Source: Calditrichaceae bacterium
GTDB taxonomy: Bacteria > Calditrichota > Calditrichia > Calditrichales > JBFXGD01
DNA: 14,980 bases
Reading direction: 5' to 3'
Assembly: GCA_050178385.1 (NCBI GenBank)
Contig: JBFXGD010000077.1
Coordinates: 1-14,980, forward strand
In this document: in pieces, positions 3,745-14,980 of the stretch
How positions within the stretch are numbered: the first letter of the stretch is position 1
Layout of the letters: every line of letters begins with the position of its first letter
Program-made: the position numbers and the translations under genes
Notes under the pieces: generated by a model
The model's database searches: none
What the model saw: only the letters and a program-made list of their open reading frames with translations
What the model was told of the DNA's origin: nothing

Positions 3745-4629
3745 TTATTTCATCAGGATCATGCGTTTCATTTCCTGAAAATTATTTGCCTGAATCCGGT
3801 AGAAGTAGATTCCGCTGGCTATATTATCTGCTGCAAATTGAATTTCATGATAACCGGCCTCTTTATTACCGTCGAACAGAGTTTTAATTTTCTTCCCTGT
3901 TACATCAAATATATCGATCCGGACAATGCCGGATTCAGGCAACCCGAATTTTATGCGGGTAGTAGGATTGAATGGATTTGGATAGTTCTGCAGTAATGTT
4001 ACCTGATCGGGAATCTGAGATGCAAACGGATCGTCACCGATTCCGGTAACCACGGATGTAATATCGATCTGAATCAATTTTGTATCCCAAAAACCATATG
4101 GATCCTGAACTTTTAAAGCAAAACCTGCAGGGCCTGTATATGTGGCCGGTGAAGGTTGTAGGATAAGTTCTGATCCGCTTTGAGTCACTTCAAGATGATT
4201 TAATTGTGAAATTTCAAGGCTTAATTCCCAAAGATCATTATCTCTGTCGGAAAGGAAATCCTGAAGAGGTACATAAGTTGACTGATTTGTGTAAATATTT
4301 GGCATTGTCCAGTCAATTTTCGGGAGAGCAACCGAAACAACTTCAGACATATTGGATTGATTCCCGTAAACATCGACAGCACAGACGCCATAGGCATACT
4401 GATCACCGGGTGTAATGTTCTGATCATCGGTGAATGTTGTATCCGGATGGGTTACAGTTGCGTGATATTTTAAATCGGTTGTGCTGTTAACACCGCGGTA
4501 AACACGGTATTGAGCTATATCAGGTTCTCCGTTTGCGAGCCATACCAAAGTTAAGGAACTGGTCTGGGCAAATAGCTGATTTAGTCCAAAAAGGATTAAG
4601 AAAATGGATAGTAATGTTTTGTATTTCAT
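3745..4629 (-). CDS. secreted protein with fibronectin type III-like domain and T9SS type A-like C-terminal sorting domain
   Basis: Signal peptide (..LFA-Q). Fn3-like 'LVW...[12 protein letters not shown]...[15 protein letters not shown]'. C-terminal '[17 protein letters not shown]...IFDVTGKKI...SGIYFYRI...KRMILMK'. GGAGA RBS. Confidence 0.88.
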
Positions 4630-7982: not shown

Positions 7983-8636
7983 TCAATCCTTCTTCAAATA
8001 TGATTTGGCTGCGCTTAAAAGGATTTCTGGTTCAAGCCTGACGCGGTGATCGGGATTAACATATTCGAACTTTATAAGGCCATCAGTTCCGATAATAAAA
8101 ACGGCGGGGACGGGAAGAATATGATGGCTTTCTCCGGAGGCCGCTTCTATATCCATCTCATAGGTTTTATACCTGGCCACAGTTTCATCATCCATTTTGT
8201 AGGCAATGCCAAAAGCCTTCGCGCTTGTTAATTTAGTGTCTGAAAGCAGCTTGTAAGTCAATTTGTGGCGATCGACACTTTCAGAAAGTTTCTCCGGTCG
8301 ATCAGCGCTGACGGCGATGATCTGGTAGCCTAAATCTGTTAAATTCTTTTCTATATCCAGCAGTTGACCTAACTGCATATTACAATAAGGTCACCAGCCG
8401 CCGCGGTAGATAATCAGAATAGTGGGTGTTTTTGAAACCGATTTTGTTAAGTCATAAGAAGCGCCATCCAGATCTTTAAGAATCAGATTCGGTATCTGGC
8501 TGCCGACAAGAAGCGGACAGATCTCCTTTGGAGAAGATGCGACTTTTTGCGATCCCTGAGACAAAGTGGAAATTGGTGATAAAAGAATTATCAATAAAAG
8601 CAATACAACCGAATATTTTGATACATTAAAGTCCAT
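7983..8636 (-). CDS. secreted peroxiredoxin-like (AhpC/TSA, Prx-like 2) selenoprotein, Sec codon at 8391-8393
   Basis: Track ORFs 8391..8651 and 7983..8378 are in the same frame and read YRGGW-TGA-PYCNMQLGQL. The TGA occupies the first Cys position of the family motif YRGGWCPYC. Signal peptide present; C-terminal LPVPAVFII. The ATG at 8636 has a GGGGG RBS (alternative start 8651). Confidence 0.9.
8353..8380 (-). promoter_or_regulatory. candidate bacterial SECIS element
   Basis: mRNA after the UGA is CCUUAUUGUA-AUAU-GCAGUU-[AGGUC]-AACUGC-UGG-AUAU. This gives a perfect 6-bp upper stem and a 5-nt loop with G at position 2. The loop begins 20 nt after the UGA. Confidence 0.7.
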
Positions 8637-8688
8637 TAAATTTACCCCCATTCTAATTTACAGAACAAAAATTGTTCAAAAGGTTAAT

Positions 8689-10646: not shown

Positions 10647-10758
10647 GTCTGTAAAAAAAGAATATTTTAGGAAATTATGTATTGCCAATATTGTCAGAAT
10701 TGTTACTCCCGGGTTGGTTCAAATGTCAGATATGTGTTCAAAGGGAGCCTGTAATAAA

Positions 10759-11436
10759 ATGAAAGAAGAATATCTTATTTTTAATTTATTGGTTGTTTCG
10801 GGGCCGGTTGTTCTGAGTTTTGACCGCAAAGTCAATTTCTATGGATTGTGGTTGAAAGCATTTACGGCATCAGCAATTACACTCGTGCCTTTTTTGTTGT
10901 GGGATATGATGGTTGCGGGAAAACACTGGTGGTTTAATGACGCTTATATAACCGGGTTTAGGATCGCCGGTTTGCCTGTAGAAGAACTGATGTTTTTTAT
11001 CACTGTCCCATTCGCCTGTATTTTCGTCTGGGAAGTTCTTGGGGCGTATTATAAAGAATACAGAATGGAAAAAGCGGTTATCCTTAGAAAAATACTATAT
11101 TTTTCGATTATTCCGGCTGCCGTCTTTTTGATAAACGGGAAAATTTACACCGCGCTTGTTCTCTCAGCGCTCAGTCTGACCGCTTTGCTTGACAGGATTC
11201 TCGACACAGGCATATTTACAAGATCCAGAACTTACCTTGAGTTAATGCTTGTTACAATTCTAATTTTAGTATTTAACGGATATCTTACCGCAAGGCCGAT
11301 TGTGCTATACGATTCCGCCTATCACCTTAATTTCAGAATAATGACCATTCCTGTGGAAGATTTTTTTTACGGATATGCTCATATATTTTCTTCGGTCATT
11401 GTCTATTTAAAATTGAAGGGAGATACCCATGGCTAA
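10759..11436 (+). CDS. membrane lycopene cyclase (two CrtYc/CrtYd-type domains)
   Basis: Hydrophobic protein with the duplicated motif 'GLPVEELMFF' / 'TIPVEDFFY' and 'PFLLWD...WWFN'. The ATG at 10759 is preceded by AAGGGAG. The stop overlaps the next start. Confidence 0.88.
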   Translation: MKEEYLIFNLLVVSGPVVLSFDRKVNFYGLWLKAFTASAITLVPFLLWDMMVAGKHWWFNDAYITGFRIAGLPVEELMFFITVPFACIFVWEVLGAYYKEYRMEKAVILRKILYFSIIPAAVFLINGKIYTALVLSALSLTALLDRILDTGIFTRSRTYLELMLVTILILVFNGYLTARPIVLYDSAYHLNFRIMTIPVEDFFYGYAHIFSSVIVYLKLKGDTHG

Positions 11437-12940
11437 ACGCGTGACAGTGATCGGAGCCGGATTAGGAGGATTAGCGGCGGCAATCCGGCTTGCAAGCATG
11501 GGATTCGAAGTAACCGTGTTCGAGAAAAATGCAAAACCCGGCGGCAAAATGAATGAGATTGTCAACCATGCGTATCGATTTGACACGGGACCATCCCTGC
11601 TCACCATGCCGTCTATCATTGATGAGTTGTTTGAATTTGCGGGTTTTAATCGTTCTGATTTTCTTGAATTCAGGCCGGTTGATCCGGTATGCCGGTATTT
11701 CTTTAACGATGGCAGTATATTTGATACTTTTAACAATCCCGATAAAATGATTTTTTCGCTTGCCGGTTTGGCGCCGAATGAAGTTGAAAATTATCAAAAA
11801 TTTATGGCTTATTCCCGTGATCTTTATGAAAGGGCCGGCCAATTGTTTCTGACAACACCTATTCATGAGAGAAAGAAAATATTCAGGTCGGGCTTTCTCT
11901 CCCGTTTAGCGGAGATCCATAAAATTGATCCATTCCGCACAGTCCATCAGGGTGTATCCGGATTTTTTAATGACGAGCGTCTCATTCAGTTATTTGACCG
12001 TTACGCGACGTACAACGGTTCAGACCCCTTCAGAGCGCCGGCTACGCTAAACATGATTCCATACCTGGAAGCTCATCCGGGCGCTTTTTATATAAGCGGA
12101 GGCATGTACCGCCTGGTTGAAGCCATGCTAAAAATCGCGGCCGCCCTCAATATTGATATCAGAACTTCCACAACCGTCGAGAAAATTATTCATAAGAACA
12201 GAAAAGTGGAAGCGGTGAGGATCGACGGACATGTACTAAAGACTGATTATGTGGTATGTAACGCTGATGTGGTTTCCGCCTATTCAGATTTGATTGACGG
12301 CTTGCCTAAAAAAGCTAAACATTATCAAAAACTTGAACCGTCGCTTTCCGGGATGGTTTTCTTGTGGGGGATTAACGGAGAAAATCCCGGGTTAAAACAT
12401 CATAATATCATTTTTAGTAATGACTATAAAAAAGAATTCTCGCAATTATTTAATGATCATCAACATCCGGATGACCCTACGATTTATGTTGCCATAACCA
12501 GTAAAACAGATCCCGAACATGCACCGGAAAATGGTGAGAACTGGTTTGTCCTTGTGAACATGCCTTATCTGACTGATCAAAATGAATGGGAAACCGACAT
12601 TGAAGCGGTTAGAAAGAATATTTTAAGAAAACTATCTGAACACGGAATCAATGTCGCCGGAAAAATCGAAACAGAGAAGGTGCTTACCCCCGAATCATTC
12701 CAGAATTTATATGGAGCGAACCGCGGCAGTATTTACGGTTTGTCTTCAAACAGCCGGTCAAGCGCTTTCCTGAGACCGGCCAATCGCAGCCGTGAGATTG
12801 AAGGACTGTATTTTGCCGGAGGGTCCGCTCATCCGGGTGGAGGCATTCCGCTCGTAATTTTAGCTGGTAAAATGACAGCCGACCTGATCGGTGAAACGAT
12901 GAATTATTCAAAAAAAGATATATTTGAAATAAAGGTATGA
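11429..12940 (+). CDS. phytoene desaturase family protein, CrtD-like (1-hydroxycarotenoid 3,4-desaturase)
   Basis: GAGLGGLAAA, FDTGPSLLT and GGSAHPGGGIP motifs. The segment 'LFDRYATYNGSDPF..P..L.MIP.LE' resembles Bacteroidota CrtD rather than canonical CrtI. Subfamily assignment is tentative. Confidence 0.8.
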   Translation: MAKRVTVIGAGLGGLAAAIRLASMGFEVTVFEKNAKPGGKMNEIVNHAYRFDTGPSLLTMPSIIDELFEFAGFNRSDFLEFRPVDPVCRYFFNDGSIFDTFNNPDKMIFSLAGLAPNEVENYQKFMAYSRDLYERAGQLFLTTPIHERKKIFRSGFLSRLAEIHKIDPFRTVHQGVSGFFNDERLIQLFDRYATYNGSDPFRAPATLNMIPYLEAHPGAFYISGGMYRLVEAMLKIAAALNIDIRTSTTVEKIIHKNRKVEAVRIDGHVLKTDYVVCNADVVSAYSDLIDGLPKKAKHYQKLEPSLSGMVFLWGINGENPGLKHHNIIFSNDYKKEFSQLFNDHQHPDDPTIYVAITSKTDPEHAPENGENWFVLVNMPYLTDQNEWETDIEAVRKNILRKLSEHGINVAGKIETEKVLTPESFQNLYGANRGSIYGLSSNSRSSAFLRPANRSREIEGLYFAGGSAHPGGGIPLVILAGKMTADLIGETMNYSKKDIFEIKV

Positions 12941-14481
12941 TGATGCTAAAAATCAAAAAGAGTTTTGAGACAAATAATTTAAAAGCAGTTGTGATAGGTT
13001 CGGGTTTTGGAGGTTTGGCTGAAGCCATTCGCTTACAGGTTCGTGGTTTTGATGTCACTTTAATTGAAAAGCAGGACAAGGTTGGCGGGAAAGCTTATCA
13101 GATGGAAAAAAACGGATATGTGTTTGATATGGGACCATCACTCATCACAGCGCCGGATATCATAAGACGGGTGTTTGATGTGGCCGGAAAGCGAATGGAA
13201 GATTATGTCGATCTGATCCGTCTTGATCCCGGTTACAGAATTTATTTTCATGACGGAACGCATATCGATTACACATCCGATTCACAAAAAATGAAAGATC
13301 AAATGCGCGTATTCAATCCCGGTGACGCGGACAGGTATGATGAGTTTATGGAGCAGACGCGTAAGTTATATCATGCGGTTATTACAGATGGAATGGGTTC
13401 TACGCCTTTTCATGATATAAAAAAAATGATACAGTTTTTGCCAAGAGCATTAAGGTTAAGCGCGCTGACTCCGGCTTATAGTTTTGTAAAGCGGTATTTT
13501 GATGATCCCAGGCACAGATTTGCTTTTTCGTTCCATCCGCTATTCATCGGTGGAAGCCCTTTCAAAGCTCCATCAGTCTATTTAATGATTCCGTATCTTG
13601 AGAAAACGGGAGGAATCTGGTTTGCCCGCGGAGGTATGTACAGTCTTGTGGAAGCCCTTGCCAAAGTTTTTGTTGAGATCGGCGGAAAACTCATCACGGG
13701 TACTCCGGTTGAAGAAATCACCACAAAGAACGGCAGGGCAACTGGTGTCAGGACTTCGGATACTTTTTATGAGGCGGATGCTGTAATATCAAATGCAGAT
13801 TTTGCACACACCTATAAAAATTTAATCAAAACCGAAGACCGGAAAAAATGGACGGATAAAAAGGTCGATAGTCTTGATTATTCAATGAGCGCGTTTCTGA
13901 TGTACCTGGGAGTTAAAAAACAGTATCCTAAATTATTGCATCATACACTGATTCTTTCAGAAAGATATAAAAATCTGGTTCGTGATATTTTTGATAAAAA
14001 AATACTTCCGGAAGATTTTTCTATGTACCTGCACGCGCCGACACGTTCCGATCCTTCAATGGCGCCCGAGGGTCATGAGAGCATTTATGTACTTATACCA
14101 GTGGCGAATCTGAAAGGTAAGATTGACTGGGAGAAGGAAAAGAAAAAATACGCGGATAAAATCCTTGAATTTTTAGAAAAGGATTTTGGGATGAGTGATC
14201 TCAGGGAAAATATCGAAGTGCAGGAGGTGTTTACGCCGGTTGACTTTAGGGAGAAACAAAACGCCTATCTCGGCAGCGCCTGGGGAGTGGAGCCAAAGTT
14301 GATGCAGACCGCTTATTTCCGGCCCCACAACCGGAGCGAAGATATCAGAAATCTTTATTTTGTGGGAGCAAGTACTCATCCGGGAGCGGGAGTTCCGGGT
14401 GTGTTGCTCACCGCTGAAGCGACAGAAAATGTGATTTTGTCAGATTTTGGATTACAACAATTTAATCTAAAGAGTGCCTGA
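12937..14481 (+). CDS. crtI: phytoene desaturase
   Basis: GSGFGGLA, FDMGPSLITAP, FSFHPLFIGGSPF, YLHAPTRSDPSMAP, QTAYFRPHN and GASTHPGAGVPGV motifs. ATGA overlap with the preceding gene. Confidence 0.92.
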   Translation: MMMLKIKKSFETNNLKAVVIGSGFGGLAEAIRLQVRGFDVTLIEKQDKVGGKAYQMEKNGYVFDMGPSLITAPDIIRRVFDVAGKRMEDYVDLIRLDPGYRIYFHDGTHIDYTSDSQKMKDQMRVFNPGDADRYDEFMEQTRKLYHAVITDGMGSTPFHDIKKMIQFLPRALRLSALTPAYSFVKRYFDDPRHRFAFSFHPLFIGGSPFKAPSVYLMIPYLEKTGGIWFARGGMYSLVEALAKVFVEIGGKLITGTPVEEITTKNGRATGVRTSDTFYEADAVISNADFAHTYKNLIKTEDRKKWTDKKVDSLDYSMSAFLMYLGVKKQYPKLLHHTLILSERYKNLVRDIFDKKILPEDFSMYLHAPTRSDPSMAPEGHESIYVLIPVANLKGKIDWEKEKKKYADKILEFLEKDFGMSDLRENIEVQEVFTPVDFREKQNAYLGSAWGVEPKLMQTAYFRPHNRSEDIRNLYFVGASTHPGAGVPGVLLTAEATENVILSDFGLQQFNLKSA

Positions 14482-14499
14482 GTAAAAACGGGGGGATGT

Positions 14500-14980
14500 A
14501 TGAACCTTTTTAATGATAAATCGATGGAGGCCGCATTTCGTTATGCCAGGGCGCAAACCGCCCATTATTCAAAGAGTTTTTATCTTTCATCGGCAATGCT
14601 GCCTAAGGAGAGGCGCTGGGCAACCTATGCCCTCTACGGCTTCTGCAGATATGCGGATAATATCATCGATAATCCCAGGAACAGGTCGGCTGATGAGCTA
14701 GTTGAGGAAATCGATTATATGTCGAATGAGCTTATCATCGCTTACCGAAGGTGGGAATCTGAACATCCAATTTTAAAACCGTTTATCTGGGTAGCCCAAA
14801 AACACGAAATACCCATAGAATATCCGCTCGACCTTCTAAAAGGGGTAAAAATGGATATTCAAAAAAACAGGTATGAAAATTTTGATGAATTGTATCTGTT
14901 CTGTTATCGTGTTGCTGGTGTTGTCGGACTTATGATGACGCATGTACTCGGATATAAGTCAAAGGACGCTTTCTTCTACG
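14500..14980 (+). CDS. crtB: phytoene synthase (partial, runs off the window)
   Basis: Absent from the ORF track and translated by hand from ATG 14500 (GGGGGA RBS): MNLFNDKSMEAAFRYARAQTAHYSKSFYLSSAMLP...ALYGFCRYADNIID...GVKMD...ELYLFCYRVAGVVGLMM. The frame is open to the window end. Confidence 0.93.
   Translation, partial: MNLFNDKSMEAAFRYARAQTAHYSKSFYLSSAMLPKERRWATYALYGFCRYADNIIDNPRNRSADELVEEIDYMSNELIIAYRRWESEHPILKPFIWVAQKHEIPIEYPLDLLKGVKMDIQKNRYENFDELYLFCYRVAGVVGLMMTHVLGYKSKDAFFY

Follow-up and report, generated by a model that had tools for sequence, protein, structure and literature searches.

A TGA-interrupted gene for a probable exported thioredoxin-fold selenoprotein in a Calditrichaceae bacterium

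The question raised by this locus is whether an in-frame TGA on the minus strand of a Calditrichaceae contig ends a gene or encodes selenocysteine (Sec). The window, which is the whole stretch of DNA that was analyzed (14,980 nucleotides), comes from a metagenome-assembled genome (MAG). The locus appears to be a single gene whose product is an exported thioredoxin-fold selenoprotein in the AhpC/TSA ("peroxiredoxin-like") superfamily with UGA decoded as selenocysteine, and this reading is given a probability of roughly 87%.

One frame across an internal TGA

The initial annotation had described an in-frame TGA at 8391-8393 with the frame open to 7983, and translation of the minus strand confirmed it. 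The frame from 8636 (or 8651) to 7983 is continuous apart from one TGA, at 8393-8391. Its codon context is ...cgc ggc ggc tgg tga cct tat tgt aat atg..., which gives GGW-U-PYC. Translated from 8651 to 7983, the region reads YRGGW-U-PYCNMQLGQL, and the frame ends with TGA at 7985-7983. Under table 11, gene calling yields two ORFs, 8391..8651 (86 aa) and 7983..8378 (131 aa). These are exactly the pieces that termination at the UGA would leave. In that case the locus would be a pseudogene or would yield two products, a peptide of about 81 aa that is exported and a C-terminal fragment of 131 aa begun at an internal ATG. Annotation in fragments had been anticipated, and the protein collection does list the 131-aa C-terminal piece as a gene called on this contig (P0003, 100% identity, 59% of the query). 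A single Pfam AhpC-TSA domain (PF00578, 5.9e-23, residues 49-194) spans the TGA with 81.6 bits against a gathering threshold of 26. Neither fragment is thus a complete fold, which argues against termination.

The selenoprotein coding sequence is placed at 7983..8636 on the minus strand, on the basis of the translation, the domain across the TGA, and the start of the protein in a congener. One protein of about 217 aa had been proposed. This length applies to translation from the second ATG, at 8636, the position at which the congener's protein begins; the alternative ATG at 8651 would add five residues. With numbering from 8636, the TGA at 8391..8393 (minus strand) is U82, the first residue of U-P-Y-C. 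Its UxxC partner, Cys85, is encoded by TGT at 8382..8384 (minus strand). It occupies an invariant column, and when the protein is aligned to Bcp and to the Sec-Prx of the same genome, it falls on the peroxidatic residue.

Machinery, homologues, and selection at the TGA

The genome was searched for selA, selB, selC, and selD, on which the initial annotation had made the selenocysteine reading depend. selA (514 bits), selB (372 bits), and selD (370 bits) were found, all over curated cut-offs, and selD itself carries one TGA. A tRNA-Sec is also present (68.9 bits, over cut-off), and ARAGORN calls it tRNA-SeC with anticodon tca. TGA serves as a normal stop in this genome as well, where it ends 509 of the 1975 ORFs of at least 250 codons.

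Either Cys or TGA was expected at the Sec column in homologues, and both were found. In the congener (G001), this codon is likewise TGA, and its protein is identical at 171 of 219 aligned positions, without gaps (78% protein identity). More distant homologues, G008, G010, and G018 (53-47% identity), have Cys. Among 55 genome-contig loci, the codon is TGY (Cys) in 53 and TGA in the congener, and the motif is absent from one. All 20 of the full-length homologues that were fetched have GGWC. TGA is also present at the same codon in a metagenomic locus, L176, which is 48% identical in protein and visibly more GC-rich. In a tree of the signal-peptide-bearing YRGGW-C/U-PYCN clade, Sec rows are a minority (3 of 45). 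On a common Sec origin for L176 and the Calditrichaceae pair, this tree gave a polytomy, and its bootstrap did not converge.

Decay after the TGA in close relatives had been named as a sign against selenocysteine. None was found in the congener, where the downstream frame is open and conserved. The comparison of dN/dS on the two sides gave 0.135 for the part after the TGA and 0.114 for the mature part before it, with dS of 0.6-0.7. A metagenome scan for YRGxW-TGA-P[YF]CN returned at least 120 contigs. Among the matches listed, 65 TGA forms were uncut by a contig end; 61 of these run on past the TGA for 100 codons or more, and four stop early. Some UGA termination is expected when selenium is scarce, and this, like the four early stops, counts for termination. 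Termination is nevertheless very improbable as the fate of this UGA. Purifying selection downstream is as strong as upstream at a dS of about 0.7, 61 of the 65 uncut metagenomic frames continue past the TGA, and both a second species and L176 keep the TGA in the catalytic column.

An apparent TGA could also be a TGC or TGT misread in sequencing or assembly. The window is from a MAG, and among public runs only X1, its probable source, spans the TGA site, with the same sequence as the window. X2 and X3 cover other parts of the window. X4 and a second X1 contig match around the motif; these are taken to be other organisms, since only about 40 nt matched and with five differences. None of the public runs listed as holding window sequence is an RNA run. 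However, the same TGA codon is present in the independently assembled congener and in L176, and the exact motif with TGA recurs in at least 120 metagenome contigs. The chance of a base error is close to negligible.

The selenocysteine machinery, the Sec/Cys pairing, and the purifying selection downstream thus support the selenocysteine reading of the UGA. It is highly probable that this is a real Sec gene. Since the TGA almost certainly encodes an active-site selenocysteine, the two annotated fragments are one protein.

Candidate SECIS hairpins

The bSECIS model, as it is set out in PMC13188914, has a loop of 3-9 nt, a stem of at least 4 bp, a G in the first two loop positions, a spacing of 16-37 nt, and a minimum free energy (MFE) of -7.5 kcal/mol or lower. 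A candidate SECIS hairpin, B, was identified at 8360..8376 on the minus strand, nt 18-34 from the U of the UGA. It has a stem of 5-6 bp, GCAGU(U)/(A)ACUGC, and the loop AGGUC, and a lower AU stem may extend it to about 8353-8380. Its ungapped stem has 6 bp, a loop start at nt 24, and -6.5 kcal/mol, a strength that 3.5-5.2% of control sites in the genome background also reach. Over nt 14-48 the value is -7.9 kcal/mol, and the same core gives -10.6 in the congener and -8.9 in L176. Hairpin B thus falls within the model, by a narrow margin in this genome and more clearly in the other two.

Conservation points to the same element. Same-residue codons are identical in all three Sec forms at 4 of 5 sites inside nt 16-35, versus 6 of 21 outside. 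The stem of hairpin B is invariant in the three Sec forms and has no covariation, so its support comes from synonymous-site conservation in a small sample. Family-wide, a model-compliant hairpin is present in 68 of 69 distinct Sec contexts (median -8.1 kcal/mol) and in 23 of 55 Cys contexts (median 0), the contexts in both sets not being phylogenetically independent, so that the p-value of this contrast is overstated.

At minimum energy the naked RNA folds into an alternative hairpin, A (8365..8393, minus strand), which cannot form together with hairpin B. Hairpin A was rejected as a SECIS. It contains the UGA itself and is therefore incompatible with a ribosome decoding that codon. The Y-C-N-M-Q codons impose the palindrome that makes up the inner stem of hairpin A, and many genes of the Cys form have this stem too. 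The MFE rank is also unremarkable (two Sec forms came 2nd and 8th of 57 in a 48-nt ranking). An Rfam scan of the window gave four chance-level snoRNA/sRNA matches and none at the locus, a blank that carries little weight.

The genome was also screened for TGA-interrupted frames. This gave 3092 raw candidates, which do not amount to a complete selenoproteome. Codon-score ranking discriminated poorly and placed the UxxC gene 243rd. Twenty contexts were picked by hand, one that ran off the contig end was dropped, and the remaining 19 were scanned against Pfam, with a domain across the TGA in three. The other TGA-interrupted genes in the genome are those for the Sec-Prx (locus C3, with a TxxU motif), a redoxin with a T9SS tail, a DUF1573 protein, and SelD. 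C16 (EVDA-U-VGTW) was rejected as a further selenoprotein candidate, as it has no family and no hairpin. All five TGA-interrupted genes, including the UxxC gene, have a hairpin of -5.8 kcal/mol or lower with a G-containing loop that starts 21-25 nt from the U, a range picked after the data were seen. For the same range, hairpins of -5 kcal/mol or better were found at 14 of 503 true TGA stops and 16 of 600 Cys codons.

These results also bear on read-through without selenium, in which a near-cognate tRNA-Trp or tRNA-Cys, or a suppressor, would give a Trp or Cys protein. The modest strength of the ungapped hairpin in this genome is in keeping with it. Against it, the genome has a complete Sec system, the UGA falls in the catalytic Cys column, in which Sec and Cys regularly replace each other, and a hairpin of the bSECIS type is kept at the spacing expected for Sec decoding. 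Elsewhere in the genome TGA stops translation efficiently, and it also ends this same gene. Selenium-free read-through is even less probable than termination.

The protein, its relatives, and its probable role

The protein had been described as exported. A predicted Sec-type signal peptide lies at 8559..8636 on the minus strand and comprises about 26 residues, MDFNVSK, a hydrophobic core, and S-T-L-S, and it lacks a lipobox cysteine. The prediction draws on hydrophobicity and on the shape of the structural model, and the cleavage site was read by hand from the -3/-1 rule. Peptides of this type have a positive n-region, a hydrophobic core, and small residues at -3 and -1. The N-terminal hydrophobic window has a mean Kyte-Doolittle value of 3.22 over 12 residues, with one Lys ahead. 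In the AlphaFold model, the N-terminus is a helix (4-19) followed by a low-confidence linker (pLDDT 54, residues 21-30). A hydrophobic N-terminal segment occurs in 21 of 21 family members checked. These heuristics support the earlier claim, and the protein is probably exported, with a good measure of confidence.

The AlphaFold model (pLDDT 90.5) is a single domain with a Prx/ResA-like fold. Residue 82 immediately precedes helix 83-101, so that Sec is at the start of helix α1. Peroxiredoxins proper are defined by PxxxT/SxxC with a peroxidatic Cys and by a conserved catalytic Arg. Here, Arg78 aligns with the peroxiredoxin Pro, Sec82 with the Thr, and the invariant Pro177 with the Arg, and only the Cys (Cys85) is kept, which places the protein outside the peroxiredoxins proper. 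As these three residues are replaced, thioredoxin-type chemistry appears to be likelier than peroxidase chemistry, a reasonably favored reading of the alignment and the model.

Nevertheless, the same exported Sec protein could be a peroxidase, in which Sec82 or Cys85 would attack hydroperoxides and the other would resolve, as in atypical 2-Cys BCP/PrxQ. The closest sequence and fold matches are BCP/PrxQ and AhpE peroxiredoxins (TM-score 0.88 to 3hjp, normalized to the target), and Cys85 aligns with the peroxidatic residue of true peroxiredoxins. The top NCBIfam match is thiol peroxidase, at a sub-threshold 52.5 bits against a cut-off of 140, and the Melioribacter Cys orthologue adjoins a gene for an AhpD-like CMD protein. 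On the other side, besides the three missing residues, the motif is of the thioredoxin type (CxxC before helix α1), and ResA thiol-disulfide oxidoreductases match nearly as well, with PDB ResA chains at 5.7e-6 to 6.7e-4. Other NCBIfam models also scored below their cut-offs, namely SelL-related redox protein (NF040769, 44.1 bits against 120), ResA (41 against 170), DsbE (26.2 against 123), and TlpA (16.4 against 230). Because its best structural matches are BCP/PrxQ peroxiredoxins, a peroxidase role is possible, if unlikely.

That Sec forms of Prx-like proteins had already been reported was borne out. Prx-like (thiol:disulfide oxidoreductase) UxxC selenoproteins have been published since 2005, when they were listed from the Sargasso Sea (Tables 1 and 3 of PMC1088965). 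Table 2 of the GOS selenoproteome gives "Prx-like 1, pfam00578, UxxC, 225 sequences" (PMC2398784), and the family is also tabled in a 2026 review (PMC13188914). By its published description, this family resembles the present protein in its PF00578 domain, in having Sec first in a thioredoxin-like UxxC, in its far more numerous Cys homologues, and in being predicted from Sec/Cys pairing and a bSECIS. The present copy differs in belonging to the signal-peptide-bearing YRGGW-C/U-PYCN clade, in which Sec is the minority, and in its Calditrichaceae host. The "peroxiredoxin-like family protein" cd02970 (PRX_like2) is tabled as a UxxS selenoprotein (PMC13188914). It shares the fold and the Sec position, and the Cys homologues of the present protein appear at NCBI as "peroxiredoxin-like family protein" or "AhpC/TSA family protein." However, the motif here is UxxC, and a possible tie to cd02970 comes from the first of these names.

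Among the peroxiredoxins, BCP/PrxQ and AhpE (PDB 3hjp, 2cx3, 5epf) and the genome's Sec-Prx are of the same Pfam family and are the best fold matches. In these the reactive residue is last in PxxxTxxC/U and is assisted by a conserved Arg, whereas here Sec is at the Thr position. The exported thioredoxin-fold proteins ResA, TlpA, and DsbE/CcmG likewise have a CxxC before helix α1 and a proline opposite. They are recycled by CcdA/DsbD, and such reductases are encoded in this genome. The present protein exceeds them by about 40 residues and carries an additional helical insert (helices 150-158 and 163-167 in the AlphaFold model), and its gene has no cytochrome-maturation genes beside it.

A working model can be proposed, in which selenium insertion, export and its cleavage site, reductase chemistry, electron donor, and substrate are all predictions. 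The UGA at 8393-8391 would be decoded as Sec by the organism's SelA, SelB, SelD, and tRNA-Sec. A ribosome arriving at the UGA would melt hairpin A and free nt 18-34, and hairpin B could then fold. Its short stem and G-G-U loop, about 20 nt downstream of the UGA, would provide the geometry needed by SelB. The UGA at the 3' end, without such an element, would terminate. The product would be made with a cleavable N-terminal signal peptide and would work outside the cytoplasm. Sec82, at the N-terminus of helix α1, would be the attacking nucleophile of U-P-Y-C and would form a selenenylsulfide with Cys85. This could plausibly be re-reduced by the CcdA/DsbD-type membrane reductases that the genome encodes; its two DsbD_TM genes are a possible source of reductant.

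Within the genus, the UxxC gene is downstream of a gene for a CarH-like (MerR and B12-binding) regulator that faces a carotenoid cluster. This gene order is shared within the genus alone and not with the Cys orthologues of other phyla, and a conserved neighborhood was rejected as a clue to function. The Calditrichaceae genes and L176 share a nearly identical 17-nt SECIS core and the codon choices UUG, GGU, and CAA, which look atypical beside the other codons of L176. From these features, the Sec allele may have spread by transfer among unrelated bacteria, and the regulator and carotenoid cluster nearby hint at induction by light or photo-oxidation. The fuller scenario is a mobile "Sec cassette" spread by transfer that encodes a light- or photo-oxidation-induced periplasmic selenoenzyme, with hairpin A versus hairpin B tuning read-through. 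It is speculative and improbable.

The UxxC gene adds a member to a published selenoprotein type, and the result is mainly an annotation fix. UxxC Prx-like selenoproteins, Sec/Cys-pair logic, and the bSECIS model are all established, and no new question is opened. The motif is abundant in environmental DNA, and the same ORF split probably affects many of its TGA-bearing copies in public metagenomes (at least 120 contigs). A literature search gave, among the matches listed, no paper linking the phylum Calditrichota to selenoproteins. The Calditrichaceae lineage appears, from predicted proteins, to use selenium in several that have signal-like N-termini, namely the UxxC protein, the T9SS-tail redoxin, and the DUF1573 protein. 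Thus, the Calditrichaceae may be a reasonable group in which to study selenoproteins outside the cytoplasm.

One gene across an in-frame TGA

A TGA codon is located at 8393-8391 on the minus strand (tgg tga cct tat tgt). The initial annotation described it as an in-frame codon within a frame that stays open to 7983. Translation of 8651..7983 (minus strand) with TGA read as U confirmed this, giving a single frame, ...TILIIYRGGW-U-PYCNMQLGQL..., whose terminal codon is another TGA, at 7985-7983. Two minus-strand ORFs, 8391..8651 (86 aa) and 7983..8378 (131 aa), result under the standard bacterial code. The contig's gene call in the public protein collection, P0003, is exactly the 131-aa piece. 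The protein of the congener, G001, starts where the second ATG lies, so the start is probably 8636, which would make the protein 217 residues long, with Sec as residue 82. One Pfam AhpC-TSA match (5.9e-23, 81.6 bits, residues 49-194) spans the TGA, as does a Redoxin match. The AlphaFold2 model, made from an alignment of the selenoprotein with 20 Cys homologues, is one compact domain (mean pLDDT 90.5, pTM 0.82) in which residue 82 immediately precedes helix 83-101. Both ORFs are one gene, and the expectation of a protein of about 217 aa that had been called as fragments held.

Close orthologues (E below 1e-60) were found in five genomes among 61 related genomes. Those of G000, the genome holding the window, and G001 (78% identity) have one TGA each, at the same codon. 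The orthologues in G008 and G010 have no stops and that in G018 has one TAA, upstream of the start codon; all three read GGWCP[YF]C at the active site. Among 55 loci of named genomes, 53 have TGY, one has TGA (the congener), and one is without the motif, in a search biased towards Cys forms because a peptide pattern containing Cys was among its seeds. The G000 and G001 proteins align without gaps, with 171 of 219 positions identical. Their dN/dS (Nei-Gojobori) is 0.114 in the mature part before the TGA (dS 0.60) and 0.135 after it (dS 0.68). Judged by the low value after the TGA, the part 3' of this codon is translated.

Selenocysteine machinery and SECIS-type hairpins

The window is an entire contig of a 3.9-Mb genome that is 94% complete. 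All four of selA (514 bits), selB (372 bits), selC, and selD (370 bits; L010 on contig C51) were found there by profile scores and, for the tRNA-Sec, by Rfam (68.9 bits) and ARAGORN (anticodon tca). The selD gene itself has one TGA, and SelD is a known selenoprotein family. Of 1975 ORFs that are 250 codons or longer, 509 end in TGA, as does the selenoprotein gene; the code of this genome is not TGA-reassigned. The four relatives examined for selB all have it, among them the three whose orthologue is the Cys form, so the choice between Sec and Cys is gene-specific.

Folded as naked RNA, the region has its energy minimum in hairpin A (8365..8393), which has 12-13 bp and includes the UGA. Its inner stem is a palindrome imposed by the Y-C-N-M-Q codons and is present in many Cys-form genes. 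Hairpin A was therefore rejected as the SECIS. These codons (UAY UGY AAY AUG CAR) contain a built-in palindrome at 8365-8393 of the window and at the matching place in loci L041-L094, and thus many Cys-form genes, too, have a hairpin after the active-site codon. For this family, SECIS calls made from minimum-energy folds alone can be misleading.

Hairpin B, the candidate SECIS, is located at 8376-8360 (minus strand; nt 18-34 from the U) and has a 6-bp stem and the loop AGGUC. The bacterial SECIS model, as outlined in the Fig. 2 legend of PMC13188914, calls for a 3-9 nt loop with a G at loop position 1 or 2, a stem of 4 bp or more, a spacing of 16-37 nt, and an MFE of -7.5 or lower. Hairpin B fits this model, with -6.5 kcal/mol for the ungapped stem and -7.9 kcal/mol for nt 14-48, the stretch outside a ribosome positioned on the UGA. 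Its core recurs in G001 (10 bp, loop GGU, -10.4 to -10.6 kcal/mol) and in L176 (-8.9 kcal/mol), a metagenomic locus with the Sec form. L176 has 48% protein identity (98/203 aligned residues) to the window protein and is visibly more GC-rich near the site. In nt 16-35, four of five same-residue codons are identical across the three Sec forms, versus 6 of 21 in the rest of the 120-nt stretch. Because the stem is invariant in all three, it offers no covariation.

As controls in G000, 503 true TGA stops and 600 in-frame Cys codons were examined; a hairpin of -6.5 kcal/mol or better follows 26 of the former and 21 of the latter. Four other TGA-interrupted genes of this genome (SelD, Sec-Prx, a redoxin with a type IX secretion tail, and DUF1573) all have a hairpin of -5.8 kcal/mol or lower, with a G-containing loop that starts 21-25 nt from the U. 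For this range, which was picked after the data were seen, the background at -5 kcal/mol is 14/503 TGA stops and 16/600 Cys codons. Across the family, a model-compliant hairpin is present in 68 of 69 distinct Sec contexts (median -8.1 kcal/mol) versus 23 of 55 Cys contexts (median 0). As the rows are related to one another, the significance given by the Mann-Whitney test (p = 6e-17) is overstated. The identification of the TGA as selenocysteine is thus supported by the Sec/Cys pair, the purifying dN/dS, the Sec machinery, and the SECIS-type hairpin.

Active site, export and surroundings

A peroxiredoxin site is marked by Pro, Thr, and Arg together with the peroxidatic residue. Thioredoxin-type oxidoreductases have a CxxC with a proline opposite the active site. 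The nearest solved structures by sequence are BCP peroxiredoxins (2cx3, 2.6e-6) and ResA (4nmu, 5.7e-6), and by fold Bcp4 (3hjp, TM 0.88 to target), BcpB, AhpE, and ResA. Matches to BCP peroxiredoxins, Bcp4, BcpB, and AhpE would suit a protein that works as a peroxidase, which is a live alternative. Against it, Arg78, Sec82, and the invariant Pro177 replace the Pro, Thr, and Arg of peroxiredoxins, and only Cys85 matches the peroxidatic position. This can be seen in a profile alignment to the Sec-peroxiredoxin of G000, where FYRGGW-U-PY-C lies over FYPGDF-T-FV-U and LPVPAVFII over ELRGRFII. The site is laid out as that of a thioredoxin-type CxxC oxidoreductase and not a peroxidase. With these residues replaced and this layout, a Sec82-Cys85 oxidoreductase cycle is favoured. 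In such a cycle, Sec82 would be the attacking nucleophile, a Sec82-Cys85 selenenylsulfide would form, and this would then be reduced again from the membrane. G000 has two DsbD_TM genes.

The N-terminus consists of MDFNVSK, a 16-residue hydrophobic core, S-T-L-S, and then Q-G; it contains no lipobox Cys. The best 12-residue window has a mean Kyte-Doolittle hydropathy of 3.22, and a hydrophobic N-terminal segment is present in 21 of 21 family members checked. The model has a helix at 4-19, followed by a low-confidence linker (pLDDT 54, residues 21-30). The signal peptide proposed in the initial annotation agrees with these features; the extracytoplasmic location is likely by the same heuristics.

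The selenoprotein gene is two genes downstream of a MerR and B12-binding (CarH-like) regulator (10362-9493), on the same strand, with a His_biosynth-family gene (9405-8689) in between. Next to the regulator and divergent from it lies a carotenoid cluster (10714-14979, plus strand); its genes encode a lycopene cyclase, two desaturases of the amine-oxidase type, and a phytoene synthase that is truncated at the contig end. On the 3' side, also on the minus strand, are a response regulator (7868-6969), a PLP enzyme (6838-5891), a second thioredoxin-fold gene without a TGA (5774-5196; DUF899 8.8e-21, AhpC-TSA 8.4e-9), and a gene whose product carries a type IX secretion sorting domain (3745-4629). 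The congener gene is flanked by the same series of ORF sizes. This neighbourhood is not shared by the Cys orthologues of other phyla, and therefore the context says little on function.

Spread of the Sec form and other selenoprotein genes

The YRGxW-U-P[YF]CN motif is abundant in its TGA form in metagenomes. At least 120 stretches matched Y-R-G-x-W-TGA-P-[Y/F]-C-N, and 80 of these (L114-L193) were examined. Fifteen end at a contig edge 3' of the TGA. The other 65 comprise 61 that are open for at least 100 codons past the TGA and four that stop early, at 14, 33, 73, and 82 codons (L162, L172, L177, and L184). The 80 contain at least four sequence groups, ...RW-U-PYCNAELEAL..., ...YW-U-PFCNSELR..., ...DW-U-PYCNGQLVS..., and L176; only L176 belongs to the window protein's exported clade. 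In a tree of 53 rows, this clade has 45 rows (support 99/99), three of them Sec rows: the G000/G001 pair (support 100/100) and L176, whose placement relative to the pair the tree does not resolve.

Other TGA-interrupted genes are present in G000, where 3 of 17 AhpC-TSA matches have a TGA. The 259-aa product of L102 (C248:2094-2873, plus strand) begins with a signal-like segment and has an AhpC-TSA/Redoxin domain; the in-frame TGA is at GYN-U-PSC, followed by a GGC-loop hairpin (-10.4 kcal/mol, 22 nt from the U). Its C-terminal type IX secretion sorting domain scores 26.6 bits with Por_Secre_tail, just below the cut-off of 27, and 32.4 with FlgD_ig, above 27. Full-length homologues with one TGA each were found in four of four relatives searched (84, 50, 46, 44, and 43% identity). 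L102 may be a selenoprotein with a type IX secretion route; the entry for the Redoxin UxxC family in PMC13188914 names no type IX tail. L096 (C287:1453-1917, minus strand) has a DUF1573 domain (PF07610, 1.1e-23), an in-frame TGA at GG-U-GC, an AGUU-loop hairpin, and one-TGA homologues in four of four relatives. L100 (C3:33004-33720, plus strand) encodes a peroxiredoxin whose peroxidatic residue is Sec (FTFV-U-ATE; PF00578 5.7e-36, plus 1-cysPrx_C), a member of a known selenoprotein family. L095 (C16:6118-6624), a frame resembling a lipoprotein, is interrupted by a TGA (EVDA-U-VGTW) and has a good codon-usage score on both sides. Because it lacks both a Pfam family and a SECIS-type hairpin, it is unlikely to be a selenoprotein.

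The text and Tables 1 and 3 of PMC1088965 describe a "Prx-like" family of selenoproteins whose UXXC motif is thioredoxin-like, and Table 2 of PMC2398784 lists "Prx-like 1, pfam00578, UxxC, 225 sequences". The tabulated families of PMC13188914 include Prx-like UxxC, under "predicted with high confidence", as well as cd02970 peroxiredoxin-like (UxxS), DUF1573 (UGC), which L096 matches, and Redoxin (UxxC). The window protein resembles the Prx-like family, as described in these entries, in its UxxC motif and pfam00578 domain. The selenoprotein gene is genuine but unsurprising, a further member of an already known family type. The main value of the finding lies in the repair of a split annotation and in the evidence that this Calditrichaceae lineage puts selenocysteine into several proteins with signal-like N-termini.
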